Shown piece by piece: positions 3,556-23,250 of a stretch of 49,892 nt of DNA (within the stretch, counting starts at the first letter, position 1; each line of letters begins with the position of its first letter). The stretch spans positions 1 to 49,892 of the forward strand of contig JBDRPD010000024.1 in the NCBI GenBank assembly GCA_043827405.1, in the 5' to 3' direction. Position numbers and translations under genes: made by a program. The DNA is from Elusimicrobiota bacterium. GTDB lineage: Bacteria; Elusimicrobiota; Elusimicrobia; UBA1565. The notes under the pieces were generated by a model. That model saw nothing but the letters and a program-made list of their open reading frames with translations, ran no database searches and had not been told where the DNA came from.

Positions 3556-3562
3556 GGGAGTC

Positions 3563-3982: not shown

Positions 3983-4043
3983 CCCCGCGAGGTTCCCTGG
4001 AGTATTTTTGGCGAAAGAATTACTAGAAACGTCTTCCAAATGG

Positions 4044-4250: not shown

Positions 4251-4257
4251 TAGAAGC

Positions 4258-5118: not shown

Positions 5119-5138
5119 CTCAATTCGTTAACCGACCC

Positions 5139-5234
5139 CCGCACCCGCCGTCTTCCCGACCACACTCTCACTACTGGTTGGGAGAGCGTGGTCGGGAAGC
5201 GATACGGGCATAGCCCGGATCGAGGCGGGTGCGG
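5139..5234 (-). ncRNA. Predicted three-way-junction structured element of unknown class
   Basis: Outer 11-bp stem 5139-5149/5224-5234 encloses an ~18-bp hairpin (5152-5199) and a hairpin at 5200-5222. Confidence 0.45.
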
Positions 5235-5293
5235 ATTAAGTAATAAAAATCGAAGCTTCTCGGCGCATCGGTCCGGCGCGAAGTGTCCGCCAG

Positions 5294-5315
5294 CCCCTCT
5301 AATTCATTAGAGGGG
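5294..5315. promoter_or_regulatory. Perfect palindrome, candidate operator
   Basis: CCCCTCTAAT-tc-ATTAGAGGGG, 10-bp arms, intergenic. Confidence 0.4.
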
Positions 5316-5352
5316 TGTGCCATACGATCCGTCACTTTCCAACTTCCAGGGA

Positions 5353-6135: not shown

Positions 6136-6278
6136 AGCTAATTATAGATTTCTTCGAGTGTCTGCGAGACGGATTCCTGCGTCGCTATCTGAAATAATCC
6201 GATACGTTTTTATGGAGGGACGTCAGGCTACTTGAGGGGTACTTGGGCAAGGTAGACGGGGGCATCCCCCGGTCCGGT

Positions 6279-7190
6279 TTATGCCCAAGGGCCTGGAGCG
6301 TTCCACTTCATCCCGTCGACCTTGCCCTTTAGGACGGCCGTGGCGATCGGAGGCAGGAACCGACGCAGGGCCCCCACGACTTCTTTAAGTTCCTTGGGGG
6401 CGGTATCAATCTTCGTCCGCCGAATGAAAGCCCGCCATTGGACGATCTTCCCCGCGTCACTGGTAAACTCGTCTGTGAGCGCGACGGGATGCGCTTCAAG
6501 CTTTGTCTTTCGGTTAGCGAAGGTTTTTTTGATCGCTTCGCCGAGGATTTTCCCATCGAAGTTGAACTGCTCGGACAGCAGCCAGATGTCATAGAAGTCC
6601 TTCATGCGGCTGTTGAGAAGCCCAAGTTGGGTCATGGCCTCGAACTTTTCTGCGATAACCGTCTCGCGGGGATAGCCGCGAAGCTTCGGCGCGGGCATGT
6701 CCAGGAAGGTCGGGTAGTCGATCTCGCGAGGCTTGGGTGAGACCGTGTCGCCGAATCCGAAATCGATCTGCATCGCGGCCTTGGCCTGGCCGAGCTTGCC
6801 GGTAAAGGTCACTCGCACGCCCTCGTAATCAGCGTCCTCCTTGATGCGCTTACCTTTGACGCTGCCTTCGAGGAAGCTCATTCCGTCGGCCTCGACCTCG
6901 ATTGCGCAGACCTCCTTGACCATGGTGACTAGATTCTCCACAGTGTTGTTGGTCCGGCCCAGGAGGTCGATGTCCCGCGTGGCCCGCGAGCGCGGAGCCT
7001 TCCAGACGACGAACATCAATGCCCCCTTGAGCACGACCTTGTCCTTGTATTTCGAGCGGCTCAGGCGGTAGAGAAAGCGCTCCATCGCGAAGTACTGGAG
7101 GAGTTCGTCGAACGGCCGGGAACTCTCGCGGGCAAGGTTGAGCAGGCGCTGACGGGCCGAGGCCGCGACATTTTTGATGGGCTTATTCAC
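6279..7190 (-). CDS. abiEii: Type IV TA toxin, AbiEii/AbiGii nucleotidyltransferase
   Basis: VLKGA, RATRDIDL, AEKFEA and SRMKDFYDI motifs; GTG start overlaps the abiEi TGA. Confidence 0.92.
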   Translation of the reverse strand: MNKPIKNVAASARQRLLNLARESSRPFDELLQYFAMERFLYRLSRSKYKDKVVLKGALMFVVWKAPRSRATRDIDLLGRTNNTVENLVTMVKEVCAIEVEADGMSFLEGSVKGKRIKEDADYEGVRVTFTGKLGQAKAAMQIDFGFGDTVSPKPREIDYPTFLDMPAPKLRGYPRETVIAEKFEAMTQLGLLNSRMKDFYDIWLLSEQFNFDGKILGEAIKKTFANRKTKLEAHPVALTDEFTSDAGKIVQWRAFIRRTKIDTAPKELKEVVGALRRFLPPIATAVLKGKVDGMKWNAPGPWA

Positions 7191-7795
7191 AGCAGGGCTT
7201 CGAGATAGGGTTTCATAACGCGTCCGACACGGCAAATCTTCGCATATTTGAGCAGAGCGTCCGGCTTGGAGCGTTTCCTCTCCCGGCAGAGCTTGAGCGC
7301 TTCGATGGCTACATCCAGGCCGATGCGGTTGCGGAACTTGAAGCAGTCGGCGACGGTCTTCTCCGGGGAATAGACTCGGAGTTCGACCCCATCGACCTTA
7401 TGGATATCGATCCCCTCGCTTTGGGCTTTGCCTGAGAGCCAGACGCAGCGAAGCGGCGGAAAATCGAGCCGGGGCTTCTCCGCGCCCTTCGCCAGAGCCA
7501 CATGAACCTCGTGCGGGACCTGGGTCGTGATTTCATGGAAAGCGAGAGCCGAGATTAGACAGATTACGCCCTGCGGTACGCGGAGCGCGACCGTGGCCAG
7601 GTCCGGCTTGGAGAAAGGCGGCAGTCCGGCCAGGCGGTAGAGCCCGCGGCTTACGGGCTCGATCATTCCCATCTCCCGCATGCCGTAGAGGTTGCGGGGA
7701 TGGATGCCGAGCTCAAGAGCTTGGGAGGTCCTTAGGAGGCCTCCGTGTGCTTTGAAGATCTTCAGCTCTCGCTGATATGGGGTAGATGATGCCAT
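7187..7795 (-). CDS. abiEi: Type IV TA antitoxin, AbiEi family
   Basis: N-terminal wHTH (VSRGLYRL), ICLISALAFHEITTQVP, YSPEKTVADCFKFRN. Confidence 0.92.
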   Translation of the reverse strand: MASSTPYQRELKIFKAHGGLLRTSQALELGIHPRNLYGMREMGMIEPVSRGLYRLAGLPPFSKPDLATVALRVPQGVICLISALAFHEITTQVPHEVHVALAKGAEKPRLDFPPLRCVWLSGKAQSEGIDIHKVDGVELRVYSPEKTVADCFKFRNRIGLDVAIEALKLCRERKRSKPDALLKYAKICRVGRVMKPYLEALL

Positions 7796-7861
7796 GGATA
7801 AATATACCGATACTTATATATATCTATAGGTAATATTATCCCGAAAAGCATGGATTGTCAA
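7796..7861 (-). promoter_or_regulatory. Sigma70 promoter and inverted-repeat operator of abiE
   Basis: TTGACA (7861-7856), 17 bp, TAATAT (7838-7833). Imperfect inverted repeat GGATAAATATACC/GGTAATATTATCC (7796-7841) overlaps the -10, as expected for AbiEi autoregulation. Confidence 0.6.
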
Positions 7862-8028
7862 TGCCTTTTTGACATCATAATCCAATCCGCCTGGCAGGCC
7901 CCCCCCAACAGGGCTTAAAATTGCTGCCCGGAAATGTCCACTCCATTTGGCTCCAACGCCTGAGATGATGATAAACTACTATGTAACTAATACTGTCAGA
8001 TTAGTCTGGCTACGTGGGGGCAGCAAAG

Positions 8029-9837
8029 ATGGCGAAGAGTCTTTTGATGGAAGTGGTGTTGCTCGGGGAGGGCAGCTTTGGGCAGACCTTCCTCGTGCAC
8101 GACCTCAGCAAACGGTTCGGAGCGCCGCTCCTTGTTATGAAGATTCCAAAGGATAGTACCGGGGTTGTAGATGACGACATTAAGAACGAAATTAACACTT
8201 TAATACGTCTCGCCCCCCACAGTAATGTTGTGAAACTGCTTGGTATTGAGGAGTTTCGAGGCCACGCATGCATTGTGATGGAACATGTCAACGGAGGTAA
8301 TTTACGAGATCCAGCAGACAATTGGAGCAAAGCTTTTCGCTCCGGGAGAGAGCAACAAATTCTTGAAGCTGAAGCCGCTATCCGCCAAATATGCCTTGGC
8401 TTAAAGCACATACATGACAAACAAGTTATACACCGGGACCTAAAACTCGAGAACATCCTCTATGAAGATGGCGGCGAAGGCATACTTATAAAAATCTGCG
8501 ATTTCGGTCTATCCAGGACCTTCAAAGCAGACGACTGGACGACAGTCGGGGGAACCCTCCCCTATATGGCCCCCGAAACCCTGGAAGGGACCTACAGCTA
8601 CTCTACTGACATTTATGCACTAGGCGCAATTATATACCGCATAATAACTGGGAAATTTCCCTTGGACTTCGGCGATTGTCGAGACTCCACTGAAAAGAAA
8701 GAAGTAATTCGAACGGAACGACCACAAACGCCCGATAAGGTGATTGGCAGAGCCGCTGGAACACTCGGCGATATCGCTGCGAAGTGTCTTGAAAAGAGCC
8801 CCGAAGCCCGCTATGGATCGATTGATGACATCCTTCGCGCACTCCCGACAGCCACGCCCACGCAAAGGTCCCCGGCCCCCCCCTCAAGCGCTCCTGCGAC
8901 AAAGCCGCCCGATATCACTGAAGCTATAAAAGAGAAACTCTCTGGGTGCGGAATAACCATCGACTCCGAAAAATCCATTGAGTATGGGATCCAACTTGTA
9001 GCGCGTTTAGGTGGAGAGAAAAACAATATCAATATCTACACAGGCAAAAAGGGAACGAAGGTGATTGTCGGCGGAAAACAGGGAGCCTTGTTCCAACAAC
9101 TCCAGGAGATCCATAAAGAACTCGGCATTGGGGCCTCCGCCCAACAACGCAAAGCATCACCTGCGGCGGCCCTCCCTCCGTTACCCGCGCCACCATGGAT
9201 CGGCACTGACGAGTCGGGCAAGGGGGATTATTTTGGACCTCTTGTCATCGCAGGCGCCTACGTCGAGCCAAGCCTCCTCGAAGTTTTGCATGAACTAGGA
9301 ATACGGGACAGCAAGCGCCTTAGCGACAAGCGGATTCGCCTACTGGCAGGCCAAATCCGTCGACTGATGAAGAAGGAGCATTTTGCCGTAGTCGAAATTA
9401 AACCAGAGACTTACAACAAGCTGTACGCAGAGTTCCGTAATGAGGGGAAGAACCTGAACACCCTCCTTGCCTGGGGGCACGCACGAGCGATTGAAGATAT
9501 TATCTCAATGCAGCCCTGCGAGACCGTTATCGCCGACCAATTTGGTGATGAAAGCTATATCAAATCCAAACTACTCAAGAGCACCAAGGACCAACGAGTA
9601 AACCTCATACAGCGACACAAGGCGGAAGCCAACATCGCCGTCGCTACTGCGTCCATCCTCGCTAGAGACAGGTATCTTGATTGGCTCGAGCGAGCATTTA
9701 AAGAATGGGGCGAGCCTCTGCCTAAGGGGGCGTCAAATTTGGTTCTTGAAGCGGCCAAGCGTTTTTCCAAATGTAACGGACATGACAACCTTGTTAAAGT
9801 GGCAAAACTACATTTTAAGACGACTCAAAGGATTTAG
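8029..9837 (+). CDS. Ser/Thr protein kinase - ribonuclease HIII fusion protein
   Basis: Hanks kinase motifs GEGSFG, VMK, HRDLKLEN, DFG, APE, DIYALG. Then a Pro-rich linker, a TBP-like segment (GIQL...INIYTGKKGTKVIVGG) and the RNase HIII core (IGTDESGKGDYFGPLV, DSKRL, IADQF, KAE..IAVATASILAR). Alternative GTG start at 8014. Confidence 0.9.
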   Translation: MAKSLLMEVVLLGEGSFGQTFLVHDLSKRFGAPLLVMKIPKDSTGVVDDDIKNEINTLIRLAPHSNVVKLLGIEEFRGHACIVMEHVNGGNLRDPADNWSKAFRSGREQQILEAEAAIRQICLGLKHIHDKQVIHRDLKLENILYEDGGEGILIKICDFGLSRTFKADDWTTVGGTLPYMAPETLEGTYSYSTDIYALGAIIYRIITGKFPLDFGDCRDSTEKKEVIRTERPQTPDKVIGRAAGTLGDIAAKCLEKSPEARYGSIDDILRALPTATPTQRSPAPPSSAPATKPPDITEAIKEKLSGCGITIDSEKSIEYGIQLVARLGGEKNNINIYTGKKGTKVIVGGKQGALFQQLQEIHKELGIGASAQQRKASPAAALPPLPAPPWIGTDESGKGDYFGPLVIAGAYVEPSLLEVLHELGIRDSKRLSDKRIRLLAGQIRRLMKKEHFAVVEIKPETYNKLYAEFRNEGKNLNTLLAWGHARAIEDIISMQPCETVIADQFGDESYIKSKLLKSTKDQRVNLIQRHKAEANIAVATASILARDRYLDWLERAFKEWGEPLPKGASNLVLEAAKRFSKCNGHDNLVKVAKLHFKTTQRI

Positions 9838-9839
9838 TT

Positions 9840-11111
9840 ATGAATGAAGAACTAAAACAACTATTTTCAAAACATAAGTATTTCGCCTGCATCAAACAGA
9901 TTGAGTCATCTCCAGGGACTGAGCAGGCCCAAGACGTCGCGAAAGTGTTTTTATCGAGCCTGCTAGGAACAGGCCAGCATGAGCGGGCCATAGAATTCTG
10001 CAAACGAAAAATCGAAGAGGCAAAAAGCCGCAAAGATAGAAATGATTGGCAGTACCGGCTGGCAGGAGCCTACCTTGAAACTAAACCCGAATTGGCTCTT
10101 GAAGCGATCCAAACCCATCTGCGGGAATTCAAGCAAAGCATTCACGGCAGAGCGGTCGCTATCCGGATCTGTTCGAAGCTCGCTCGGCACTCAGCTGCCG
10201 AGCAGTACTACAGAGAAGGGATAGACATCATCCAAGCACTCCCAGAAGCCAAGAAAAAAAGTTTTGGGTCCCTGATCGCGATGCTTCACAAGGACTACGG
10301 GGATTTCCTCCACAAAGTAGCAGAATCTAATCAAGACCACGAGAAGAAGCAGGCTGCTTGCGAGGCATTCCAGCATGCCGCCAATGCACACCCAGGAAAC
10401 CACTTAAACTGGTACCACCTCGGGAAAGTTCATTTTGAGTTGCATAATTTGGATGAGGCGAAAGCAGCTTTCGCGCACGCACTAAAAATTAAGGAGGAAC
10501 CCTATATCATCCACCAACTTGCGCAAGTCGAAGCTGCGAGGGGGCACGACGAAGAGGCTGTTAAGATATACAGCCAAATCCCCGACAAACGCCGACAGCC
10601 ATATGTGTGGTCGAAGCTCGGCCAGTGTCTCGAACGTTTAGGGAAACAACGGGAGGCTGGACGCGCTTACCGTGAAGCAATCGCACGGGAGTCGAACAAG
10701 CATTATCACCACCTCTACTTGGGCCGCCTTTTTATGGCAATGAATGCGAAAACGCAGGCCATAAGGGAGTTTGAGGAAACGCGCAAACTACACAAGAGTG
10801 AGTTTGGCCCCGACCATTCAGCGGCACGTGAGCTCATCGAAAAATGCAAGCAGATGGAAGAAGACACAACCGTGACCTTTCGGGAAGCTGCTAAAGTGAA
10901 AAAAGAACGTGGAGTGATCGCCCGCTACAATATGGATAAGGGCTTTGGCTTTATAGATTTTGGATCAAAAAGTCTCTTCTTCCACATCACCGACATCAAA
11001 GACCAATCAAGAAAGGGAACCCCTTCCAGCGGGCAGCGGGTATTGTTTCTCGTAAAAGAAACACCGAAGGGGTTCGCGGCGAGTGAGGTTGAGCGTGCAT
11101 CCGCAGATTAG
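9840..11111 (+). CDS. TPR-repeat protein with C-terminal cold-shock (OB-fold) domain
   Basis: Repeated TPR-like helices (WYHLGKVHFELHNLDEAKAAF, WSKLGQCLERLGKQREA). C-terminal GVIARYNMDKGFGFI...LFFHITDI...GQRVLF...KGFAASEV. Starts 2 bp after the kinase stop. Confidence 0.85.
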   Translation: MNEELKQLFSKHKYFACIKQIESSPGTEQAQDVAKVFLSSLLGTGQHERAIEFCKRKIEEAKSRKDRNDWQYRLAGAYLETKPELALEAIQTHLREFKQSIHGRAVAIRICSKLARHSAAEQYYREGIDIIQALPEAKKKSFGSLIAMLHKDYGDFLHKVAESNQDHEKKQAACEAFQHAANAHPGNHLNWYHLGKVHFELHNLDEAKAAFAHALKIKEEPYIIHQLAQVEAARGHDEEAVKIYSQIPDKRRQPYVWSKLGQCLERLGKQREAGRAYREAIARESNKHYHHLYLGRLFMAMNAKTQAIREFEETRKLHKSEFGPDHSAARELIEKCKQMEEDTTVTFREAAKVKKERGVIARYNMDKGFGFIDFGSKSLFFHITDIKDQSRKGTPSSGQRVLFLVKETPKGFAASEVERASAD

Positions 11112-11117
11112 GGCCGA

Positions 11118-11300
11118 TTAGTTATCCGCGGCGCTCACAGCATCGCCCGCACCATAGTCGACGTCAACCTCGAGGTTCCAACGATAAAAGGTCGTTTCGG
11201 TGATACCATGCTTGCGGCAAGCGTCTTTTATGCTGCCGCTGGTGTCGGCTTCCCGCAGGATCGCTACGATCTGTTCCGGCTTGAATTTTTTCCGTGCCAT
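11118..11300 (-). pseudogene. Truncated IS3-family transposase OrfA fragment
   Basis: MARKKFKPEQIVAILREA...KDACRKHGITETTFYRW, then homology ends; no OrfB. Confidence 0.8.
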
Positions 11301-11414
11301 TCATCCCCCATCGCGACCCAGTCCCAAGAAACTCCGCCAAAACTAGAGTTAGGAATTTCGTAAGTTCAATAATATTATTGTTATTAGATCGTTTGTTATT
11401 ATTAAAGGAATAAT

Positions 11415-12704
11415 ATGGGAAAACGGAAAAAGAGGATTGTCTACCTGATCGGGGCAGGAGCTTCTATCGCTGTCGATCCCGTAGTCCCCGGTATGGATAA
11501 TTTTCTGGACTGCGCTCTAAACAATCTCGAGGGTCCTGAAGATGCCTCATGTGTTTTAGCTTTGGAGAAGCTTCGGGAATTGGCGACTTTCCCATTCTCG
11601 GGCCATCTCGAAACACCGTGGCCTTTAAGTGGCCTCCACGACGAACGAAGACTCACGCAGTTTAAAGGTTTTTATAAGACGTTCCTGAGCGAGCGTGCCC
11701 AGCACAAAAAACCTGGATATAATAACTTGGAATCCATTTTTGACGAAGCTACTATGGGCTGGCATAAGGATGGCGGAGAAGCCCATAGACGTCTGACAAC
11801 CTTGATTGGGTGGTTGTTCTCAAAACTGGATCAAAAATTATCTACATCATTAACCTCATCGAAGAACCCCTATCGAATTCTGGGAGGCTGGCTCTCTGAG
11901 AAGGCCGCATCGGAATACCAGCATCTATTGATTTCATTTAATTATGATGTTTGGCTTGAGCAAGCATTGTTCGATTCACATGTGGGAGGCCGCAGATTAT
12001 GGCATCCAAGTGACGGTTACTGTATGCCAAGCCATTCGACACTATTCGGCGGATATCTCGGCCCTTCAGATAGAGAGCAGAGTCGCAGACAACAGGCGAA
12101 TCACTCCAAGGGTGACATAGGCACGATGGTTCCGCTTGAGGCGCGCCTCTTTCGCAATATTCCGAAGCGATCTAGGATCAAGATATTGAAACCTCATGGG
12201 TCACTATCTTGGGTGCGCCCCGTAGAAAAGCCCTACTCTACACCACCGTTGCTACTCCTCGACGTTGATGAGATCCATACTAATACGCTCGCAGGAAATG
12301 TCGTTCACCTCGAGAAAGGTCAGGAATTAATCAATATCAAGCAGCAAACGACATCGCCGGATAGGTACTTCCCACTAATTGTTCCGCCTGCGACAGTGAA
12401 GGCTCGTTCTGGAAGGGTTTTTTGGGAAATTCAGAAAGAACTAGATTCTCAGATCAATAGTGCTGATGTTGTTGTTGTTATTGGATGGAGTATGCCGGAT
12501 ACTGATATCGACTCACGTTCACGAATGCAAGGAATTATATCGAGGCGGAATAAGCAGCTGGAAAAATTAATCGTCTGCAACTTCCACCAACCCGATCCAT
12601 TTTATACTAAATTTGAGAATCTTTTTTGGCCAGAAACCGAACCAATATTCTGGGATGAAGGATTTAATAGGGATTTTGTCGAAAAATGTCTCACGTGTCT
12701 CTAG
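11415..12704 (+). CDS. SIR2-like domain protein, putative NADase defence effector
   Basis: YLIGAGAS, ISFNYDVWLEQAL, LKPHGSLSW, LIVPP and VIGWSMPDTD motifs. Confidence 0.85.
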   Translation: MGKRKKRIVYLIGAGASIAVDPVVPGMDNFLDCALNNLEGPEDASCVLALEKLRELATFPFSGHLETPWPLSGLHDERRLTQFKGFYKTFLSERAQHKKPGYNNLESIFDEATMGWHKDGGEAHRRLTTLIGWLFSKLDQKLSTSLTSSKNPYRILGGWLSEKAASEYQHLLISFNYDVWLEQALFDSHVGGRRLWHPSDGYCMPSHSTLFGGYLGPSDREQSRRQQANHSKGDIGTMVPLEARLFRNIPKRSRIKILKPHGSLSWVRPVEKPYSTPPLLLLDVDEIHTNTLAGNVVHLEKGQELINIKQQTTSPDRYFPLIVPPATVKARSGRVFWEIQKELDSQINSADVVVVIGWSMPDTDIDSRSRMQGIISRRNKQLEKLIVCNFHQPDPFYTKFENLFWPETEPIFWDEGFNRDFVEKCLTCL

Positions 12705-12734
12705 CGTGTTGATCTAAGCTATTTAAGAAGATTT

Positions 12735-13043
12735 TTATACATATTTCTCGCATTTTTTACGGAGTTCTTTTGTTTTATCAAGAATTCCTTGAATGACCTC
12801 CTTGGGGCGCCCTGGCTTCGCGTGTAGTAAGCAGTATTCTAATTCTGTTATAGACATATCTGGAGCAGGTGCTATTTTATCCATCCATGAGCAGGATTCG
12901 TTCTCACATCTATTCGCTCGTATATTGCGATCATACTGTAAAGACTTTTCGTTACAGTTTGGACATTCCGAACAGTTCTCGCCATAAATTGGGTCAAAGA
13001 CGTCTTTTTTGGCAGGTTTTGTGAGCAAATTAAGTTCTGTCAT
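12735..13043 (-). CDS. Small Cys-rich (Zn-ribbon) protein
   Basis: CPNC...RCENESCSW; ATG at 13043 overlaps the 3' end of the deaminase gene. Confidence 0.6.
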   Translation of the reverse strand: MTELNLLTKPAKKDVFDPIYGENCSECPNCNEKSLQYDRNIRANRCENESCSWMDKIAPAPDMSITELEYCLLHAKPGRPKEVIQGILDKTKELRKKCEKYV

Positions 13044-14226
13044 AGACCCTCTCAAATGCGCGAGCTTTTATGCCTTCAAATTTTTTTAATTCAACTTTAG
13101 CTTCTTCAAGCATCCGCCAAGCCTCAGGGGATGGGTATGGCTCGACATAGACTACCTCACGTAGCCCGATTTCAATAATCTTTTTTGCGCAAAGCAAACA
13201 GGGGAAAGTCGTCGTATATAGAACAGCGCCATTATTTAATACAGCCTCACTCCCTCTTCGCCCCAGTTGAAGTATGGCTCTCTCCTCTGCGTGAACTGCC
13301 CTGCATAAATCCAGGGCTTTGCTAATTTCGCGATATTGCTCTAATTCTGGTTGAGTTCCACAATTCGGACATTCTGAAAGGATGCACTGTATCCGAATTT
13401 TACGTCGGTTGCCTTTAGAACAGGTTAAACAACTCCTCCTTAAGTCTCTCCGGCAAGCCTGTATGCTGGCACATGTCGCCGTGCCTTGAGGAACATCATT
13501 GAAACCGCTTGATGCGACATTCGACTTCAGGTCCATGATGGCCGCGCCAACCTTTCTCTTTAAGCATGTGGACCTTTTGGCTTGCGTCCAGGCATGAGAC
13601 ATGCCAATCTCCATGGGGGTGGGGCTATAATCATCAGGATTCTCGATACGGGCTAAATAATCGTCTACTTTTTGTGTTAGATCTTGTGTTGTGGATGTGT
13701 TATTGATAACCAAATCAGCTTGGTCGACACACCTGGCTACATGTTGCCCGTGGAGTGGCTCATTCTCGCCTGAGTCACGCTGATCATCTATTTCAAAATC
13801 TTTTATATTCGTATATTCTTTGTCGTGCAGAACTCTTTCCCATCGCACTTGTTTCGAAGCGTCAATATTAATTAGGAAAAAATTAGGATATTGCCCTCTT
13901 AAAGTTCGTGCTTCCTGTTGATTGCGGATGCTTTTTACGACTATGCGTGAGGGGCGCTTTCGTTTGCCAGATTTCGCAGATGGGACGTTTTCAATTTCTA
14001 AAATCGTAAGAGAAGCGAGATGCTGTTCCCCGTTACTCTTTCGCAACTCATCTCCAATGTTTTGACTATCTCGGCGAGTTAGAGCAGGATACCCCCTTCG
14101 CTTTCCTTCAATCTTGATGGGATTTGCTAACGAGAAAATGGCGAAGCCCTTTTTCGCTAAATATTGAGCGACAGTGCCGCACCCGCTACCGAAAGAGCCT
14201 GTCAGTCCTAGTACTAGCGAGTCCAA
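13030..14226 (-). CDS. P-loop kinase - deoxycytidylate deaminase fusion (AvcD/dCTP-deaminase antiphage type)
   Basis: N-terminal GLTGSFGSGCGTVA; C-terminal STCLKRKVGA, HAEERAI and FPCLLCAKKI; TTG start with GGAG RBS. Confidence 0.85.
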   Translation of the reverse strand: MDSLVLGLTGSFGSGCGTVAQYLAKKGFAIFSLANPIKIEGKRRGYPALTRRDSQNIGDELRKSNGEQHLASLTILEIENVPSAKSGKRKRPSRIVVKSIRNQQEARTLRGQYPNFFLINIDASKQVRWERVLHDKEYTNIKDFEIDDQRDSGENEPLHGQHVARCVDQADLVINNTSTTQDLTQKVDDYLARIENPDDYSPTPMEIGMSHAWTQAKRSTCLKRKVGAAIMDLKSNVASSGFNDVPQGTATCASIQACRRDLRRSCLTCSKGNRRKIRIQCILSECPNCGTQPELEQYREISKALDLCRAVHAEERAILQLGRRGSEAVLNNGAVLYTTTFPCLLCAKKIIEIGLREVVYVEPYPSPEAWRMLEEAKVELKKFEGIKARAFERVYDRT

Positions 14227-14388
14227 ATTGTCTCCAGTATATGCTGATCAATCAAGTGAGATTAGGTAATGATAGCAATGAAATAGTCGTTTTAGTACTG
14301 CTTTTTCAGGTATAAAAACCGAGCTTATGTTTTCCTGGTTTGCCCAAAGAATACAGATTCCCATAATTGGATGGGGAAGTTTGCGGCC

Positions 14389-14417
14389 TTGACAATATAC
14401 CGTACACGGTATATACT
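14389..14417 (+). promoter_or_regulatory. Promoter with palindromic operator of the HigBA-like TA
   Basis: TTGACA (14389-94), 17 bp, TATACT (14412-17). Palindrome ATATACCGT-ac-ACGGTATAT (14395-14414) fills the spacer. Confidence 0.8.
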
Positions 14418-14454
14418 TAAATAGGTATATATTCCGGCTGGATCATCCGCGTTA

Positions 14455-14814
14455 ATGCTTCATAGAAGATACTACCCCAAAGGGGATAGGGGAAATGTCC
14501 GCGAATATCTGGACGCTCTGCGCCGGAACAGCCAGACAAAGAAGGCCGCAGCCAAGCTCGATATCGATTTGCAGACCTTGGAGGAATACTGGCCGAAAAA
14601 GTTGGGCGTCACCGTGCGTACTCTGAAGGGCTGGGAGCCGCTCAAGGAGCTTAAAAGAAAATATGACAAGATCGCCTATCGGATTTTCTTCTGCATCAGG
14701 CGAAACGAGATTTGGCTCCTCTCCGCGTATGAAAAGGCGTCGGAGGCTACGCCCAAGAAAGAGCTGGAAAAGGCATATAAGCGCATGAAAGAGGTGCTGG
14801 AGGGACGCATATGA
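14455..14814 (+). CDS. RelE/HigB-like toxin
   Basis: LKGWEPLKELK...AYRIFFC....IWLLSAYEKASEATPKKELEKA; toxin-first gene order. Confidence 0.8.
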   Translation: MLHRRYYPKGDRGNVREYLDALRRNSQTKKAAAKLDIDLQTLEEYWPKKLGVTVRTLKGWEPLKELKRKYDKIAYRIFFCIRRNEIWLLSAYEKASEATPKKELEKAYKRMKEVLEGRI

Positions 14815-15155
14815 GCGCGAGAAAGATTCCCGAATTCGACAAGGACGTCCGCAAGGCCATCGAGTCCGATCCGGAATATGCGATGGAGTATTTCGAGGAA
14901 CTTAAGACCCGACCCCTCCCCGTTCAGCTCACGCTTCTGCGCAAATTCCTCGGGCTGACCCAGGAAGACCTCGCCAAGGCGCTGGGCCTCAAGCAGACCC
15001 ATATATCTCGCCTGGAGAAGGTCGACTCCGACCATCTCCTCAGCCTTTACCGGAGGGCGGCGAAGAAGCTGGGCGCCCATCTAGCCATAGTCCCGAATGA
15101 CATGGTCCTGATCTCCAAGAAGCAGCTGAAGAGGTTGTCCGCCGCCCGCGCCTAA
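14811..15155 (+). CDS. Xre-HTH antitoxin (HigA-like)
   Basis: LRKFLGLTQEDLAKALGLKQTHISRLE; ATGA overlap with the toxin gene. Confidence 0.85.
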   Translation: MSARKIPEFDKDVRKAIESDPEYAMEYFEELKTRPLPVQLTLLRKFLGLTQEDLAKALGLKQTHISRLEKVDSDHLLSLYRRAAKKLGAHLAIVPNDMVLISKKQLKRLSAARA

Positions 15156-15162
15156 CATCTAG

Positions 15163-15183
15163 ATTTGTGCCATATTTGTGCCA
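15163..15183. repeat. Tandem 10-bp direct repeat, candidate integrase arm-type sites
   Basis: ATTTGTGCCA at 15163-72 and 15174-83, about 125 bp inside the att site. Confidence 0.5.
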
Positions 15184-15307
15184 AGTTGGGGTGAAAACAG
15201 GCGGTAATAGGTGTAAGCCCATGCATGCCCATGCAAGTCGTTTTCTCGACGAGAAACGGGCATTTTTAGGGACCGCCGTCGGACAGCGCAAACCCCCCCT
15301 TAATACA

Positions 15308-15352
15308 TTCGCAAGGTAGAGGTCAGGGGTTCGATCCCCCTCAGGTCCACCA
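15308..15352 (+). mobile_element. att site: 3' half of tRNA-Ala(CGC), right boundary of the island
   Basis: TTCGCAA-GGTAG-AGGTC-AGGGG-TTCGATC-CCCCT-CAGGTCC-ACCA gives anticodon loop, T arm, acceptor strand with U70, A73 and CCA. No 5' half is present upstream. Confidence 0.88.
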
Positions 15353-15359
15353 TTTAATA

Positions 15360-15397
15360 ACCCCACGAAATCCAAAAGATTTCGTGGGGTCTTTCTT
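15360..15397 (+). terminator. Intrinsic terminator after the tRNA fragment
   Basis: CCCCACGAAATC-caaaa-GATTTCGTGGGG followed by TCTTTCTT. Confidence 0.75.
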
Positions 15398-15417
15398 ATG
15401 GTTTCGAACTCCTCCCC

Positions 15418-15448
15418 AAAAAGACAGGCCCCGGTTTCCCGAGGCCTG
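15418..15448 (-). terminator. Intrinsic terminator / attenuator hairpin
   Basis: Minus strand CAGGCCTCGG-GAAA-CCGGGGCCTG-TCTTTTT with a GNRA loop; one pair works as G-U only on this strand. Confidence 0.7.
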
Positions 15449-15578
15449 CGCAGGGTCGTCTAACTTCCCGTCAGTCGTCCATAGTATATCAGCCTCACCG
15501 CAGACTTGCCAGTGCCGCTCGACAAAGCGGAGCGGTTCCCCAGAGGCCGTCAGCGGAATCCTTTGGGAAACCGTCGGC

Positions 15579-15651
15579 CTGCGGGGGTGGGACTCGAACC
15601 CACATCCCTCCGTTTGACTGACGGGAGACTTACCAGTTAGTCGACCCCGCA
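15579..15651 (-). tRNA. Atypical tRNA-Asp(GTC)-like RNA
   Basis: 73-nt cloverleaf: TGCGGGG/CCCCGCA acceptor, GACT/AGTC D stem, anticodon loop CAGTCAA, GTGGG-TTCGAGT-CCCAC T arm, G73. Atypical features are A33, a C-A mismatch at the top of the anticodon stem, U1-A72 and no encoded CCA. Confidence 0.75.
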
Positions 15652-15727
15652 GACCTGCCCATATTTACGAATGAGGTCCAGAATAGTTCCCTGTCGCGGG
15701 CAAATATCGAGCCAGTTGCGAAACTCG

Positions 15728-15744
15728 CCCCCGCAGGTCCACCA
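15728..15744 (+). repeat. Second, shorter copy of the tRNA-Ala 3' end (older att remnant)
   Basis: CCCCCgCAGGTCCACCA matches 15336-15352 at 16/17. Confidence 0.65.
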
Positions 15745-15756
15745 AGTTTTCAGACG

Positions 15757-15785
15757 AATAGCCCCTCTGGCAGGAGGGGCTATTT
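15757..15785. terminator. Probable bidirectional terminator
   Basis: AATAGCCCCTC-tggcag-GAGGGGCTATT between the att remnant and the convergent caspase-like gene. Confidence 0.7.
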
Positions 15786-15801
15786 GCTTGGCAGATGGTT
15801 C

Positions 15802-17154
15802 TTAGCGGATGACGATATCGGATGAGGTATGGAGAGTCGGACTCTGGTCCCGGTTCTGGCGCCGTGCCTCGTCCTGTACCTTAGGCTTCACGTACTGGTA
15901 AAGGCTCTTCACGGTAATCAGCCCTTTGACATCCTTCGCCTCGCCATCGAGTCCCTGCAAAAGATAATACGTGAAGGTGCCATGTCCCCGCGATTCCAGA
16001 GTACTGGTTATTTGCTCTCCGGTCGCGGCGGCCATTACCGTCAATTCGGGCGGGATTGCGGCTTTCTCCACCTTGAGGACTAGAGGCCGAGCGCCTTTGG
16101 GAAGTACTGAACGGCCGCCCGTGCCCGAGAAGCAAGCGTCCATAGCAAGAATGACTTCTTTGGCTTTGAGCGCTGAGAGTTTTTCGTAGAGCCTTTGTGT
16201 AGGATAGGCGGTGTCTTTGAGAAAAGCCGGATCCCCGTCCCAGGGAACGAGATAGGCTTTCCCGGTCGATACGTCCGGCGCTCCGTGACCGGAGAAATAG
16301 AAGAAAACGCGGCTGTTCTTCTGGATGTTTTGCGGGAGCCAGGATTCAATGTTCTTCTTGAGGGCGGAGTAGCTTGCATCAGGACCGATCAGCTGGATGA
16401 TGTTGCGCCGGGGGAAACCCAAGGCGAGCAGGTAGCCGGTCATGGCTTTTGCATCCCGTTCCGCGTAGTCCGCCTGCGTGATGCGCGAATACTGTTCGAT
16501 TCCCACAACGACCGCGAACGCCGTCTCATCCTGCTTCATGGAGAACTGCGGTTTCAGTATCGGGGCGAGATTCGGAGCCTTTGCTACGGGAGTGCCGCCG
16601 GCCTTGCGCTGGGCGAACTCCCGCAAGGCGCCGGAGCCCAGAATCCCCGCTTCCACCTTGCGGAGAAGTTCGTCGGCCATCTTCGCGATGGCCTTGCGCG
16701 GGTTCATAGGCGGTCTGCGGAGTTCGCTGACGGCATGGACGCGGTCGATTTCCGCCCCCCCAGGCTCGAGGAATATGATGGTTTCTTCCATCTTGTATTT
16801 ACGCCGCTCCGGGATGATCGTGTCCACGATGGCGGCCAGATCGACTCCCGCCCGCTGAGCCGCCGCCACAGAGTCGGCATGCAGCACTTCTCCGAAAAGC
16901 CGTTTGAACAGGGCGACGTCCTGCTGGGTCATCTTCTCGGTCGATCCGCCCGCCAACCCCAGCATCTCCGTCTTGCGGCCATAGTCGACGGCGTCCCGGG
17001 TGTTTTCGGATGAGATGAGGGCGAGGCGCAGTTTTGGGAAAGCGGGCGGGGCCTCTGCTAGGCCCTGGTTGGCATACGGATCCCTCGCGGCTGGAACGTT
17101 GGGGAAGCAGCCTGCGAGCAGCATGGGAATAATAATCATTGCGGATATTCGCAT
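15802..17154 (-). CDS. Caspase-like (peptidase C14) domain lipoprotein
   Basis: Lipobox LLAGC; AVVVGIEQY, YFSGHG and MDACFSG (His-Cys dyad), NRDQSP. Confidence 0.88.
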   Translation of the reverse strand: MRISAMIIIPMLLAGCFPNVPAARDPYANQGLAEAPPAFPKLRLALISSENTRDAVDYGRKTEMLGLAGGSTEKMTQQDVALFKRLFGEVLHADSVAAAQRAGVDLAAIVDTIIPERRKYKMEETIIFLEPGGAEIDRVHAVSELRRPPMNPRKAIAKMADELLRKVEAGILGSGALREFAQRKAGGTPVAKAPNLAPILKPQFSMKQDETAFAVVVGIEQYSRITQADYAERDAKAMTGYLLALGFPRRNIIQLIGPDASYSALKKNIESWLPQNIQKNSRVFFYFSGHGAPDVSTGKAYLVPWDGDPAFLKDTAYPTQRLYEKLSALKAKEVILAMDACFSGTGGRSVLPKGARPLVLKVEKAAIPPELTVMAAATGEQITSTLESRGHGTFTYYLLQGLDGEAKDVKGLITVKSLYQYVKPKVQDEARRQNRDQSPTLHTSSDIVIR

Positions 17155-20147: not shown

Positions 20148-21932
20148 CTAGACGTCCAGCTTGATATGCAGCTCCTTGAGCTGCTGGGGCGCGACCGCGG
20201 AAGGTGAATCGCTGAGCAGGTCCTGGCCCTTTTGGGTCTTGGGGAAGGCGATGACGTCGCGGATGGAGCTTTCACCCGCCAGCAGCGCCACCAGCCGGTC
20301 GAAGCCGAGGGCGATGCCGCCATGCGGCGGCGCGCCATGCTCCAAGGCATGCAGCAGCAGGCCGAAGAGCTTCCGCCGCTCCTCGGGGCCGTAGCCCATC
20401 AGGCCGAGAATTTTCTCCTGCAGCTCGGGCCGGTGGTTGCGGATCGAGCCCGAGCCGAGCTCCACTCCGTTGACGACCAGGTCGTATTGGTGCGACAGGA
20501 CATTGCCGGGATCGGTGTCGAGCTTCGGAATTTCCTCTTCCAGCGGCGCGGTGAACGGATTATGGGTGAAGGTCCAGCGCGTGTCCGTCTCGTCGCGCTC
20601 CAGCAGGGGGAAGTGCCGCACCCAGAGCAAAGACCACGGCCGCACCGGCTGCAGCTTCAAGCGGACGATCAGCTCGCGCCGCAGCATGCCCAGCTGCTCG
20701 GCCACGACGTTCGCGGGGCCGGCGCCGAAGAGAACGACCTCGTCGGGCTTCGGTCGGAAACGGTCTTTAAGCGCCCGCAGCTCCTCCGGCCGCATAAACT
20801 TGGCGATCGGCGAATCTTCCTTGAGCGCCTCACCCTTCCAGCGGATCCAGGCCAGGCCTTTGCCGCCCATCGCCTTGACCATGTCGGTCAGCTTGTCCAA
20901 AGCCGCGCGGGTGAGGATTTCCCCCTGGGCGTGCAGGCAGCGCACCACGCCGCCGCCGTCGACGGCGCCGCTGAACACCTTGAACGGCGAACCCTTAAAC
21001 AGCTCCGAACAGTCATGGATCTCGATAGCGTAGCGCGTGTCCGGCTTATCCGAGCCGAAGCGCGCCATGACCGCGGAATATTCATAAGCGGCAAACGGCG
21101 TCTCCAGTTCTACTCCGAGCGCCTCCTTGAACACGGCCCGCAGGATGCCCTCGGTCGTTTCGTGCACGTCGCGCTCGCGGACAAAGGCCATCTCGAGATC
21201 GATCTGGGTATGTTCCGGCTGGCGGTCGGAGCGCAGGTCCTCATCGCGGAAGGCCCGGGCGAACTGGAAGTAGCGCTCGACGCCCGAGGCCATCAGTATC
21301 TGCTTGAAGATCTGGGGCGACTGCGGCAGCGCGTAAAACGTTCCGGGGCTGAGCCGCGAAGGCACGAGGAAATCGCGCGCGCCCTCCGGCGTCGATTTCG
21401 TCAGCACCGGCGTCTCGACTTCGGTGAAGCCGCGCCCGTGCAGGAAAGTCCGCGCCGCGTGCGCCGCGCGGTGGCGCAGCGCCAGATTTTTCCGCATCCG
21501 CTCGCCGCGCAGATCAAGGAAGCGGTACTTCAGGCGCACCTCTTCCGACGGCCGCGCCGCGCCGTCGATCTCAAAGGGCAGGGGCTTGGAGACGTTGAGC
21601 ACCGTGATCTCGTCGGCCTCGATTTCGACCTCGCCGGTAGGCAGCTTGGGGTTGCGGCTCTCGTCGGGCCGCCGGGCCGCGATCCCGCGCACGGACACCA
21701 CATGCTCCGCGCCGAGGCGCTCGGCGGTCTTAAAGACCTCGGGCTTCTGCGGCCGGGCGACGATCTGCAGCAGCCCGCCGGCGTCGCGCAGATCAAAGAA
21801 GTAGACGCCGCCGTGATCGCGCCGTGAATGGACCCAGCCGCAGACGCGCACCTCTTGGCCGATATGCTCCGGGCGCAGCGCGCCGCAGGCATGCGTCCGC
21901 AGCGGCTCTTCTTCCGCCTTATTCTTCGCCAT
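20148..21932 (-). CDS. aspS: Aspartate-tRNA ligase
   Basis: RTHACG, RRDHGG, STPEGARDFLVPSR, FRDEDLRSDRQPE, GAPPHGGIALGFDR. Confidence 0.98.
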   Translation of the reverse strand: MAKNKAEEEPLRTHACGALRPEHIGQEVRVCGWVHSRRDHGGVYFFDLRDAGGLLQIVARPQKPEVFKTAERLGAEHVVSVRGIAARRPDESRNPKLPTGEVEIEADEITVLNVSKPLPFEIDGAARPSEEVRLKYRFLDLRGERMRKNLALRHRAAHAARTFLHGRGFTEVETPVLTKSTPEGARDFLVPSRLSPGTFYALPQSPQIFKQILMASGVERYFQFARAFRDEDLRSDRQPEHTQIDLEMAFVRERDVHETTEGILRAVFKEALGVELETPFAAYEYSAVMARFGSDKPDTRYAIEIHDCSELFKGSPFKVFSGAVDGGGVVRCLHAQGEILTRAALDKLTDMVKAMGGKGLAWIRWKGEALKEDSPIAKFMRPEELRALKDRFRPKPDEVVLFGAGPANVVAEQLGMLRRELIVRLKLQPVRPWSLLWVRHFPLLERDETDTRWTFTHNPFTAPLEEEIPKLDTDPGNVLSHQYDLVVNGVELGSGSIRNHRPELQEKILGLMGYGPEERRKLFGLLLHALEHGAPPHGGIALGFDRLVALLAGESSIRDVIAFPKTQKGQDLLSDSPSAVAPQQLKELHIKLDV

Positions 21933-23250
21933 GAGTGTTCCCGGAGAGCAGTCCGCCGCCCGCTATCTCCTTCAGGTTCGCCAGCGCGATCTCTTCCTGG
22001 CGGCCGTTCTCCATGTCCTTGAACATGCAGGCCGCCGGCTCCTTCTTCAGCTCGTCCTCGCCGAGGATCACCGCGAAGCGGGCGCCCTGGCGGCCCGCCT
22101 CGCGCATCTGCGCCTTGAGGCTCAAAGCGAACAGGCCGCCGGCCGTCCGGATGCCGAAGCGCCTTAGGGATTCGATAGTCTGCGTGCCGATCGACGCCGT
22201 CGCCGCGTCCCGCGTGGCGATGACGATAAAGACGTCGGTTTTCGGCGGCGGCAGGATCTTGCCCAGCGCCGCGGTTTCCGGATCGGCCGCCCGGGCCGCC
22301 ATGATCATCCGCTCTACGCCCAGCGCCCACCCGACGGCCGGAGTCGGCGCGCCGCCCAGGGATTCGACGAGCGAATCATAGCGCCCGCCGCCCGCCAGCG
22401 CGTCTTGGGCGCCGATGCCGTCGGCTTGGAACTCGAAGACCGTGCTCGTATAGTAGTCCAGGCCGCGCACGAGACCGGGATCGGGATATTTATGCGGACA
22501 GCCGACCGCATCGAGCATGCCGACGACGCTCTCGACATGCTCCCGGCAGCGCGGGCAGGCCTCGAGCGCGGGCGCGTCCTGGGCGAGGCCGGGGCCGTCC
22601 TTCTTGCAGTCCAGGGCGCGCAGCGGGTTGCGCTCAATTCGGCCGCAGCAGCTGGCGCACAGCCCGCCCTCGCGTTCCCGCAAAAAGGCGCGCAGCCGCT
22701 CGCGGTATCTGGGCCGGCATAGCGGATCCGTGTCGCAGCCGATATTGTTGAGACGCAGCCTGGTCTTGTCGCCCAGGCCCACCGTGTCGAGCAGATGCTT
22801 CAGCGCCAGGATCGCCTCGACATCGGCCGCCGGATGCGGGTTGCCCAGCGATTCCACCCCGATCTGCTCGAACTCCCGGTAGCGTCCCGCCTGCGGCCTT
22901 TCGGCGCGGAACATGCTGCCGATATAGAAGAGCTTGGCGCAGGGGCCCTGCTGGCCGAGGTGCTCATTGAGGAACGCCCGCACCACTCCGGGCGTGCCTT
23001 CCGGCCGCAGGGCGAGATGCCTCCCCCCCGCGTCCGTCAGCTTGTACATCTCCTTCTCGACGATATCGGTGGTTTCGCCGGTGGATTTAACAAACAGCTC
23101 GGCATGCTCGAGCGTCGGTATGCGAATCTCCCGGTAGCCGTAGAGCTCAAAGGTCGCGCGCGCCGCCTCTTCAAGAGCGGCGGTATGCTCGCAGTCCTTG
23201 CCCAGCAAGTCCCGGAAGCCCCGGATGGTCGTAATCTGTCCGCCGGACAC
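21919..23250 (-). CDS. hisS: Histidine-tRNA ligase
   Basis: LRPEGTPGVVRA, FRAERPQAGRYREFEQ, LVRGLDYYT, GGGRYD. Confidence 0.98.
   Translation of the reverse strand: MSGGQITTIRGFRDLLGKDCEHTAALEEAARATFELYGYREIRIPTLEHAELFVKSTGETTDIVEKEMYKLTDAGGRHLALRPEGTPGVVRAFLNEHLGQQGPCAKLFYIGSMFRAERPQAGRYREFEQIGVESLGNPHPAADVEAILALKHLLDTVGLGDKTRLRLNNIGCDTDPLCRPRYRERLRAFLREREGGLCASCCGRIERNPLRALDCKKDGPGLAQDAPALEACPRCREHVESVVGMLDAVGCPHKYPDPGLVRGLDYYTSTVFEFQADGIGAQDALAGGGRYDSLVESLGGAPTPAVGWALGVERMIMAARAADPETAALGKILPPPKTDVFIVIATRDAATASIGTQTIESLRRFGIRTAGGLFALSLKAQMREAGRQGARFAVILGEDELKKEPAACMFKDMENGRQEEIALANLKEIAGGGLLSGNTHGEE

Follow-up and report, generated by a model that had tools for sequence, protein, structure and literature searches.

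A tRNA-like gene and a predicted antisense RNA gene form a conserved, co-varying module in Elusimicrobiota

Why should a tRNA gene be followed, on its own strand, by sequences complementary to it? The question is raised by a 49,892-nt stretch of DNA (the window) that makes up one whole contig (JBDRPD010000024.1) of the genome of an Elusimicrobiota bacterium of the order UBA1565 (assembly GCA_043827405.1, here G000; 4.33 Mb on 108 contigs). Its minus strand carries a tRNA-Asp-like gene and, downstream, segments complementary to that gene. A preliminary description of the locus had taken the tRNA for an antisense regulator that attenuated a mobile-element gene since lost from this genome. The tRNA-shaped RNA with antisense partners stands; the attenuation of a lost mobile-element gene does not. 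The architecture of the locus, its cloverleaf and the covariation between its complementary parts are conserved in a family of homologous modules. We think it probable, though far from certain, that this is a self-contained two-RNA module in which a dedicated small RNA (sRNA) locks or unfolds a stress-induced accessory tRNA.

The tRNA-like gene and its downstream complements

ARAGORN reported a single minus-strand tRNA at the locus, Asp(GTC) at 15652-15576, and the Rfam tRNA model (RF00005) matched 15651-15579 with 48.1 bits against a gathering score of 29, which ranks 45th among the 49 tRNA matches in the genome. The cloverleaf previously drawn there, with A33 and without CCA, is thus present. 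The gene has a U1-A72 pair, G73 and the anticodon GTC at 15618-15616 within the loop C-A-G-T-C-A-A, where nt 33 is A (15619). Its 3′ end reads on as G-GCC, so that no CCA is encoded, as is the case for about half of the tRNAs in this genome. Decoding tRNAs are expected to have the universal U33 and a regular 5-bp anticodon stem. The window copy departs from this with its A33, and all five anticodon-stem pairs form in only 7 of the 33 homologous modules described below. Separate canonical tRNA-Asp genes are present in G000 and in a second genome, G027; therefore, the window copy is an extra gene and not the housekeeping one. No close relative of its body was found among the tRNAs of G000. In a permissive scan of 15300-15800 against all Rfam families (E up to 10), tRNA was the sole relevant match, the others lying far under their gathering scores or on a tRNA-Ala fragment. 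As a side observation, ARAGORN found no tRNA-Asn in this 98%-complete assembly, though relatives have one, and it made several long, odd calls (His, Gly(ACC) and Ser) that are apparent false positives.

Past the tRNA-like gene lies a trailer hairpin (coordinates of all features are given in Table 1) containing CTGACGG (15553-15547), which is complementary to tRNA nt 28-34. The hairpin and this complementarity hold as first described, but CTGACGG does not simply form the loop: in the minimum-energy fold it is partly paired in a small apical stem and is not fully exposed. Further downstream, a consensus scan of 15300-15820 found a sole sigma-70-like promoter (shuffled sequences average 0.2). It includes TGATATACT, which had been offered as a possible extended -10 element and is borne out as such. 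We placed the predicted start of the sRNA ~7 nt past the -10 box and its predicted end in the U-run of an intrinsic terminator; this terminator and its GAAA loop, noted earlier, were recovered by a terminator scan.

Two segments of the predicted sRNA, one at its 5′ end and one in its 3′ part, are complementary to the tRNA-like RNA, as the preliminary description had it. Segment A (15466-15476) forms an 11-nt perfect inverted repeat with 15616-15626 in the anticodon arm and loop (100% in the repeat finder). Segment B can pair over 16 nt with the acceptor 5′ strand and the D arm, forming 14 Watson-Crick pairs and one G-U pair with one mismatch. The predicted duplex between the sRNA and the window's own tRNA-like RNA has an energy of -47.8 kcal/mol, compared with -33.1 kcal/mol for the best other ARAGORN tRNA call in the genome.

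Homologous modules and covariation of the pairing

In a DNA search of 60 related genomes, several genera showed matches to the tRNA-like part followed, as in the window, by matches to the terminator-proximal part. To collect modules, we used the terminator motif GGCYYCGGGMRACCGGGGCC, which gave 49 distinct segments, 35 of them with a tRNA T-loop at the right upstream distance. After removal of a broken copy (L008-242) and a duplicate (L173), 33 modules were analysed, all from the same order. Of 101 genomes of the order, 27 contain the motif itself, at 41 places in total; a reversed control gave none. In a phylum-wide sample it was found in 21 of 401 genomes; the five of these that lie outside the order have no tRNA-like gene upstream of it.

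The modules share a common order: an ECF-sigma-type (extracytoplasmic function) promoter motif, the tRNA-like gene, often a trailer hairpin, a sigma-70-type promoter and a terminated sRNA gene of 50-70 nt, which starts 70-130 nt downstream of the tRNA-like gene on the same strand. In the alignment of the 33 homologues, the cloverleaf shows compensatory changes on both sides in 16 of its 21 pairs, and little or no variation is seen at U8, G10, A14, G18, G19 and in the T-loop. U1-A72 is kept in 30 of the 33, as is a single nucleotide between G19 and A21; G73 is kept in 27. The anticodon is GTC in 24 modules, CTC in three, GAT in two, and GCC, TTC and GTA in one each, with one module mis-registered. 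A strong trailer hairpin of ~10-13 bp occurs in 21 modules, and in 20 of these its loop holds 6-10 nt complementary to tRNA nt 27-37. The sRNA promoter reads TTGACN at -35 in 24/33 modules (TTGA in 28/33), followed by a 16-18 nt spacer and a TAnnnT box, with an extended TG in 26/33. Between this box and the terminator lie 20-48 nt of sRNA body, the anti-anticodon segment first. Segment A is present at a cut-off of at least 8 nt in every module and segment B in 29 of them; segment B and the terminator are the most conserved parts of the sRNA.

Covariation between the anticodon arm and its target had been set beforehand as the test of an antisense relation, and it is clear in the homologues. The anticodon arm (nt 27-43) has 31 distinct sequences among the 33 modules. 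Nevertheless, the pairing exceeds chance by a wide margin: the longest uninterrupted Watson-Crick/G-U run between an arm and its cognate sRNA averages 12.8 nt (range 7-18), compared with 7.2 ± 1.8 nt for non-cognate sRNAs and 6.2 ± 1.1 nt for the shuffled own sRNA. Predicted arm-sRNA duplexes likewise reach -26.3 kcal/mol for cognate pairs versus -14.7 ± 4.0 kcal/mol for non-cognate ones. The cognate sRNA is the best partner in 22/33 modules and within the top seven in all 33. Position by position (32 modules; L010, which has no cognate register, was omitted), tRNA nt 28-36 are paired in 31-32 of the 32, with two to four pair types each: G-C (19), A-U (9) and C-G (4) at nt 30; C-G (15), U-A (9), G-C (4) and A-U (4) at nt 31; and U-A (17), C-G (12), G-C (1) and A-U (1) at nt 33. 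The odd A33 of the window had been explained by a fit to the UG of a stop codon in the target. This explanation fails, since nt 33 varies across the modules (U 18, C 13, A 1, G 1) and its partner base changes along with it; A33 is one state of a freely co-varying pair. One locus (L147) even holds two tandem modules with different arms, each matching its own sRNA. Although the modules are related, 31 different arms and this tandem pair are hard to explain without selection for pairing. Judged from these sequences, the predicted antisense relation between the tRNA-like RNA and the downstream segments is true and selected.

Could the complementarity have no RNA function and be left over from a partial, inverted duplication of the tRNA 5′ half, or be a DNA palindrome maintained by gene conversion? 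The order of segments A and B corresponds to the reverse complement of tRNA nt 1-38 without its middle, segment A shows no excess of G-U pairs, and the window module is bracketed by 17-nt copies of a tRNA-Ala 3′ end. However, the complementarity has been kept through 31 arm sequences while linker, spacing and flanks diverged, and the segments are only 8-18 nt long and framed in the right orientation by a conserved promoter and terminator. A strand test of segment B over all modules counted 19 G-U against 4 A-C mispairs, an excess that argues for selection on RNA of this strand. Complementarity without an RNA function is therefore very unlikely.

The homologues also bear on the idea with which the locus was first described, that the tRNA-derived RNA regulates, in cis, a leader whose downstream gene has been lost from this genome. 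Its two-site complementarity and the adjoining terminator are real, and the structured antisense RNAs C4 of phages P1/P7 and CI of phage P4 reportedly act on targets of the same strand, with recognition at two sites. Yet in all 33 modules, the target segments lie in a short unit that ends at a terminator directly following them, and none of the homologues has a recurring co-oriented gene past it. No recurrent neighbour was found among the 47 nearest open reading frames (ORFs): the flanking genes are unrelated (cusB/cusA, moxR/DUF58, secA/lnt, glycosyltransferases) and mostly on the other strand, often on both sides. Moreover, the target has its own promoter, and the pairing of segment B stops short of the terminator stem. 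A Met-Asp-Asp mini-ORF (ATG GAC GAC TGA, starting 1 nt past the -10 box) and a GGAGGAG ribosome-binding site are present in the window as reported, but no homologue keeps them; we rejected both, together with the stop-codon idea, because they are not conserved. Control of a lost downstream gene is thus extremely unlikely.

The analogy with C4 and CI holds in principle, in the two-site complementarity on one strand and the inverted repeat, and breaks down in its particulars. C4 and CI are said to be tRNA-like substrates of RNase P that control ant/icd (P1) or the replication genes of P4 in a prophage immunity region. In contrast, the modules have no recurrent downstream gene, their structured partner is a full tRNA, the other partner comes from an sRNA gene that has a promoter to itself, and their gene contexts are chromosomal and varied. 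No match to the Rfam C4 family was found in 15300-15800 at E up to 10, nor was any T-box match found there at that threshold. T-box leaders control the gene downstream of them by pairing with a tRNA at two places, 3-4 nt at the anticodon and the NCCA end. Like them, the sRNA would read a tRNA through its anticodon next to a terminator; unlike them, it has 10-18 nt of complementarity to the anticodon arm, its second site is the acceptor 5′ strand and D arm instead of the 3′ end, and no gene follows.

Table 1. Features of the module and the adjoining tRNA-Ala fragment in the window
Feature	Position	Strand	Basis or note
Accessory tRNA-like gene, 73 nt	15579-15651	-	ARAGORN, Rfam tRNA
tRNA nt 26-36 (TCCCGTCAGTC), anticodon-stem 5′ strand and loop	15616-15626	-	Site complementary to the sRNA seed and partly to the hairpin
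Putative ECF-sigma-type promoter: GGGAAC (15691-15686), 16-nt spacer, CGTA (15669-15666)	15666-15691	-	Read from the sequence; activity presumed
Trailer hairpin with CTGACGG in its upper part	15533-15573	-	Fold of -23.7 kcal/mol, z -3.05
Predicted sigma-70-type promoter of the sRNA: CTGGCA, 18-nt spacer, TG-n-TATACT	15483-15512	-	Consensus scan
Predicted anti-tRNA sRNA, ~60 nt	15416-15478	-	Bounded by promoter and terminator
sRNA segment A (GACTGACGGGA), 5′ seed, complementary to tRNA nt 26-36	15466-15476	-	Repeat finder
sRNA segment B (AGTTAGACGACCCTGC)	15450-15465	-	Complementary to acceptor 5′ strand, nt 8-9 and D-arm 5′ side
Intrinsic terminator: 11-pair stem with GAAA loop (15449-15424), then T-run	15418-15449	-	Terminator scan
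tRNA-Ala(CGC) 3′ fragment, last 45 nt	15308-15352	+	Identical to the intact gene on contig C5

Promoters, folding and the direction of control

The motif upstream of the tRNA-like gene is a candidate ECF promoter. In the window, tRNA nt 1 lies 14 nt beyond CGTA; across the modules, the strict form GGAAC-N16/17-CGTA is present in 31/33 and ends 10-15 nt before tRNA nt 1, with GTA invariant in the alignment. It resembles known ECF consensus sequences. In G000, the version with TCGTA precedes, twice, an ECF-type sigma gene on contig C52 (Pfam Sigma70_r2 and r4_2). On the basis of this likeness and of the position before a sigma gene, we regard the motif as a probable ECF promoter. In the same genome, TCGTA motifs stand before seven ORF6N-like genes, a ComM-type gene and, judging by eye, an integrase-like ORF; Pfam confirmed two of the seven as well as the ComM-type gene. 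The start codons of the genes so preceded (contigs C25, C40, C54, C52, C63 and C8) mostly lie ~10 nt past the -10 element. This GGGAAC-N16/17-TCGTA set looks like a regulon of leaderless genes of mobile-element type. Genome-wide, GGGAAC-N15-18-CGTA has 56 matches in G000 compared with 46 in the reversed control, i.e. no overall enrichment, and only the intergenic TCGTA subset looks promoter-like. The other tRNAs of G000 lack the motif, and several canonical ones, including tRNA-Asp, show TATAAT-like boxes.

These features speak to a simpler view, that the gene is an ordinary spare tRNA-Asp isoacceptor in normal translation, to which the sRNA is irrelevant. It passes the Rfam tRNA threshold, most homologues share the loop CTGTCAA with canonical tRNA-Asp, and the missing CCA is commonplace in this genome. 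Against this, U33 is replaced in 15/33 modules, the anticodon is other than GTC in 9/33, the anticodon stems carry mismatches, and U1-A72 takes the place of the canonical G1-C72. The window gene is also the sole tRNA of its genome behind an ECF-type motif, and the co-varying sRNA would be left to be explained. We consider a spare isoacceptor highly improbable.

In silico folding is consistent with an sRNA that opens the tRNA. With a short leader and trailer, the tRNA-like RNA folds as a cloverleaf (-41.3 kcal/mol), and the 63-nt sRNA forms the terminator hairpin while its 5′ part stays open (-28.9 kcal/mol). In the 245-nt read-through RNA, a long-range duplex of the tRNA 5′ half with segments A and B is preferred and only the T arm is left (-124.7 kcal/mol, z -5.76; none of 200 shuffled sequences folds as well). 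In 12 short modules, the sRNA promoter begins soon past the discriminator, with no terminator between the genes; therefore, the upstream transcript must hold the antisense part in cis.

We infer from these observations that both promoters are active and that control runs from the sRNA to the tRNA. In this order, the accessory tRNA would be made from the ECF-sigma-type promoter GGGAAC-N16/17-CGTA and the sRNA from its own near-consensus sigma-70 promoter, ending at the very conserved GNRA-loop terminator. The 5′ end of the sRNA would pair with the pre-stacked anticodon loop and enter the 5′ strand of the weak anticodon stem (nt 27-38), and its second segment would bind the acceptor 5′ strand and D arm. 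Because the two duplexes would jointly pull the cloverleaf apart, the sRNA may be a cognate lock that keeps the accessory tRNA unfolded, unprocessed and uncharged, and probably open to duplex-specific RNases. The trailer hairpin would be a third, cis copy of the anti-anticodon sequence. Release would come once ECF-driven synthesis outruns the sRNA.

Several points weigh against this two-RNA lock. Since the modules are related to one another, their counts are not independent events. In one of them, L010, the sRNA does not match the arm, the longest run being just 7 nt. Segment A shows 9 G-U against 12 A-C mispairs, hence no G-U excess, which is compatible with upkeep of an inverted repeat at the DNA level. 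The acceptor stem of the window is extended to 11 bp, and this is not general: the homologues average 2.3 extra pairs versus 1.5 in non-cognate controls, and at least four extra pairs form in only 12/33. As no terminator separates the two genes, every transcript from the ECF promoter would have the antisense part in cis, which leaves the accumulation of free tRNA unexplained. All 101 genomes of the order encode an orthologous ECF sigma factor, whose presence therefore gives no co-occurrence signal with the module, and the ECF promoter is not universal, a diverged module in genome G110 having a sigma-70 promoter instead. In two metatranscriptome runs of the source study, contigs over 15300-15800 covered only 15300-15367, i.e. 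the tRNA-Ala fragment, and nothing of the module, whereas DNA contigs span the whole interval. Finally, some sRNA units are orphans without an adjacent tRNA-like gene: L140 in genome G008 and the second units of L332 and L339.

The orphans keep promoter, seed, segment B and terminator. Their persistence fits a reversed direction of control, in which the sRNA is a working regulator of other targets and the ECF-induced tRNA-like RNA is its sponge or decoy. A precedent would be 3′ETS-leuZ of E. coli, which is said to be a tRNA-spacer sponge that absorbs sRNAs regulating mRNAs. As there, sequence from a tRNA unit that is no part of the mature tRNA could base-pair with another small RNA; here, however, the trailer and sRNA are complementary to their own tRNA body, and the sRNA has a separate promoter. 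Reversed control is also favoured by the classical layout of a trans-acting sRNA, with a 5′ seed and a terminator, and by the conservation of segment B and the terminator above the rest of the sRNA. However, the seed changes with its own tRNA arm, through 31 arms in 33 modules, and any shared mRNA targets would have to change too. Nor would a sponge need to keep every nucleotide of the tRNA tertiary contacts. We regard this alternative as rather unlikely, and hold to the sRNA as a lock on the tRNA.

Free tRNA, distribution and genomic setting

What might the accessory tRNA do once free? We infer a role from the combination of its identity elements, which suggests, tentatively and at a low probability, a deliberately mis-specified decoder under an RNA lock that places Asn at Asp codons when the sRNA does not mask its anticodon. 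Bailly et al. (2006, PMC1635274) showed that bacterial GatCAB is helped by U1-A72 to amidate its substrate and is kept from doing so by G1-C72 together with U20A; Asp-tRNAAsp(U1-A72, deltaU20A) was amidated nearly like wild-type Asp-tRNAAsn, and C36 had little effect. Nakamura et al. (PMC2811023) agree on the first base pair and the D-loop. GatB is encoded in G000, together with AsnRS and GlnRS (asparaginyl- and glutaminyl-tRNA synthetases), and in 5/5 carriers of several modules. In G042, the genome with most modules, gatB matches in two adjoining pieces (G042:C5:148331-149769; model positions 3-278 and 277-480), which a frameshift or a split gene may explain. On account of U1-A72, the short D-loop, the GatCAB data and the presence of GatB, the GUC tRNA is a predicted substrate for Asp-to-Asn conversion. 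The GUC anticodon and G73 would lead to aspartylation by aspartyl-tRNA synthetase (AspRS), and U1-A72 without the extra D-loop nucleotide would make the Asp-tRNA a good GatCAB substrate. The result would be Asn-tRNA(GUC) and Asn at Asp codons, or, for the CUC and UUC variants, Gln at Glu codons. A constitutive cognate sRNA would mask the anticodon and unfold the tRNA until induction by the stress sigma factor, or loss of the sRNA, frees it. Either the cell would then mistranslate in a regulated way, or the many orthogonal pairs of a genome would amount to an all-RNA device for toxin-antitoxin action or abortive infection. Circumstantial features that bear on the latter, in the logic of type I or type VIII RNA pairs, are the near-consensus sRNA promoter, the several mutually orthogonal copies per genome and the patchy spread (12 of 43 genomes, see below).

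In G027, where 46 distinct ARAGORN calls were made in the regions fetched for 49 Rfam tRNA matches, U1-A72 occurs among the 45 tRNAs besides the module tRNA only in tRNA-Asn, both tRNA-Gln and one tRNA-Met(CAT). In canonical tRNA-Asp and tRNA-Glu, the first pair is G1-C72, and G19 is separated from A21 by two nucleotides (BLAST searches of relatives with the tRNA-Asp of G000 matched tRNA-Glu(TTC) instead). The tRNA-Met(CAT) genes of G027 (L372) and G000 (contig C39) have U1-A72 within the same acceptor, TGCGGGG/CCCCGCA, as the tRNA-like family, with A as discriminator versus G in the family. This shared acceptor offers another explanation for U1-A72 and so counts against mistranslation, as do a body that is not specially Asn-like, the frequent replacement of U33 and a second subfamily with other acceptor features. 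An origin of the body from tRNA-Asn was considered and rejected: by pairwise score, the best canonical match was mostly tRNA-Gly(TCC) (13/33) and tRNA-Asn in only 4/33.

Natural mistranslating tRNAs are known from Streptomyces and Kitasatospora, where tRNA-ProX, with A33 among its odd features, has a dedicated synthetase, ProRSx (PMC10404621). The accessory tRNA would be similar in joining an anticodon for one amino acid to acceptor features of another type, and the window copy also has A33. It differs in that no synthetase accompanies the modules (none was found among the 47 neighbours) and in that mistranslation is only predicted here; in the available text of PMC10404621, the word 'antisense' does not occur and 'promoter' occurs once, for the E. 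coli proK promoter used in cloning. The GUC anticodon, U1-A72 and lack of an extra D-loop nucleotide also recall the engineered tRNA-Asp(U1-A72, deltaU20A) and tRNA-Asn(C36) of Bailly et al., in a natural RNA. Those, as described, were laboratory tRNAs assayed with Neisseria and Thermus enzymes, whereas the RNA here is known from sequence and its body is not particularly tRNA-Asn-like. Another non-coding tRNA mimic, the bacterial Y RNA YrlA, is described as combining a tRNA-like part and a Ro-binding stem in one RNA linked to the rsr (Ro60) gene (PMC4201824), while the modules hold a complete 73-nt tRNA and a second RNA gene. There was no Y RNA match in Rfam and no Ro-type gene among the 47 nearest neighbours, although no genome-wide Ro60 search was made.

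To follow the distribution of the family, a covariance model of the promoter and tRNA-like gene (R1) was searched in class and phylum samples. The window copy scores 116 bits. Within the order, 12 of the 43 genomes sampled have matches of 93-116 bits, frequently several each; the ceiling for ordinary tRNAs (chiefly tRNA-Asn) is ~77 bits. Among 108 genomes sampled from other orders of the class, none had a match of at least 93 bits. Two diverged modules were recognised by eye: L202 in G466 (family f7; 75 bits) and, in the phylum sample (n=151), L399 in G110 (family f19, a different class; 87 bits), the latter with a TTGACA/TATAAT promoter before its tRNA-like gene. The best genome-wide match in G008, which holds one of the orphan sRNA units, was 71.8 bits, the score of an ordinary tRNA. 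The pattern GGGAAC-N15-18-CGTA-N58-75-GGTTCGA gave at least 121 matches, and among those listed one is a module (L094) and the rest are chance, which makes it uninformative on other phyla. In viral contigs, the terminator motif occurs at at least 117 loci, with a tRNA-like gene in none of the 80 examined and a single 28-bit match to an ordinary tRNA. At L336, L340 and L342, and in the second unit of L094, the ECF-type motif of the modules is followed by a second tRNA-like subfamily. Its members have the acceptor GCCCCGG/GCTCCCG with G1-C72 and the anticodons GAC, GGC or GCT, without the long arm of a true tRNA-Ser, and their downstream sRNAs are complementary to both sides of the anticodon arm in a different segment order.

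In the window, G+C is 44-59% from base 1 to ~15300 and 60-72% further right. Among the defence-type genes of the low-GC part are AbiEii/AbiEi, a deaminase that also has an AAA domain, a Gp49/HTH pair and a Mutator-family transposase. Two more form a pair that is unusual in a defence island (8014-11111): a 607-aa ORF joining Ser/Thr protein kinase and RNase HII domains and, following it, a TPR protein with a C-terminal cold-shock domain. The end of contig C5 (locus L398) overlaps the first bases of the window, and its intact tRNA-Ala is adjoined by a tyrosine integrase and an AbiU2 HEPN gene. Given this overlap, the integrase and the 45-nt tRNA-Ala repeat, an island of ~19 kb (window 1-15352 plus C5) sits integrated in tRNA-Ala(CGC). 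The module had been assigned to a mobile element; in fact it lies just outside this island, in a convergent arrangement with tRNA-Ala that relatives L006 and L010 share. A second copy of the tRNA-Ala 3′ end (17 nt, 16/17 identical) is found on the far side of the module at 15728-15744 (+), so that direct repeats resembling attachment (att) sites flank a 375-bp segment holding the module. Next to this copy is the element CGAGTTTCGCAAC (15712-15727), which recurs upstream of the module in L003, L004 and L010. G002 has two tandem units, and a 420-nt metagenome contig terminates at both att-like repeats. The bracketing may go back to an ancient integration or mark a cis-mobilisable unit. Genes for AspRS and HisRS (histidyl-tRNA synthetase) lie at 20148-23250 (-), with AspRS at 20148-21932, 4.5 kb from the tRNA-Asp-like gene, but AspRS is not a recurrent neighbour in the scan of the 47 nearest ORFs.

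Such a module is not described in Rfam 15 or in the full-text literature searched (subscription-only literature being outside its scope), and even on a conservative reading the modules are a non-coding RNA family absent from Rfam 15 and so add a new one. If the sRNA does lock the tRNA, this would be the first found family of bacterial tRNA genes each with a dedicated, co-evolving antisense RNA gene. A tRNA would be controlled by unfolding, rather than through its synthesis or modification, and an ECF stress sigma factor would be tied to the tRNA pool. Synthetic biology might draw parts from the family, whose natural RNA-RNA pairs, built on a tRNA scaffold and orthogonal to one another, would number in the dozens. 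Such a lock would also make a question testable: does a tRNA with an Asp anticodon and amidotransferase identity serve regulated Asp-to-Asn mistranslation in these bacteria, or is it an RNA toxin?

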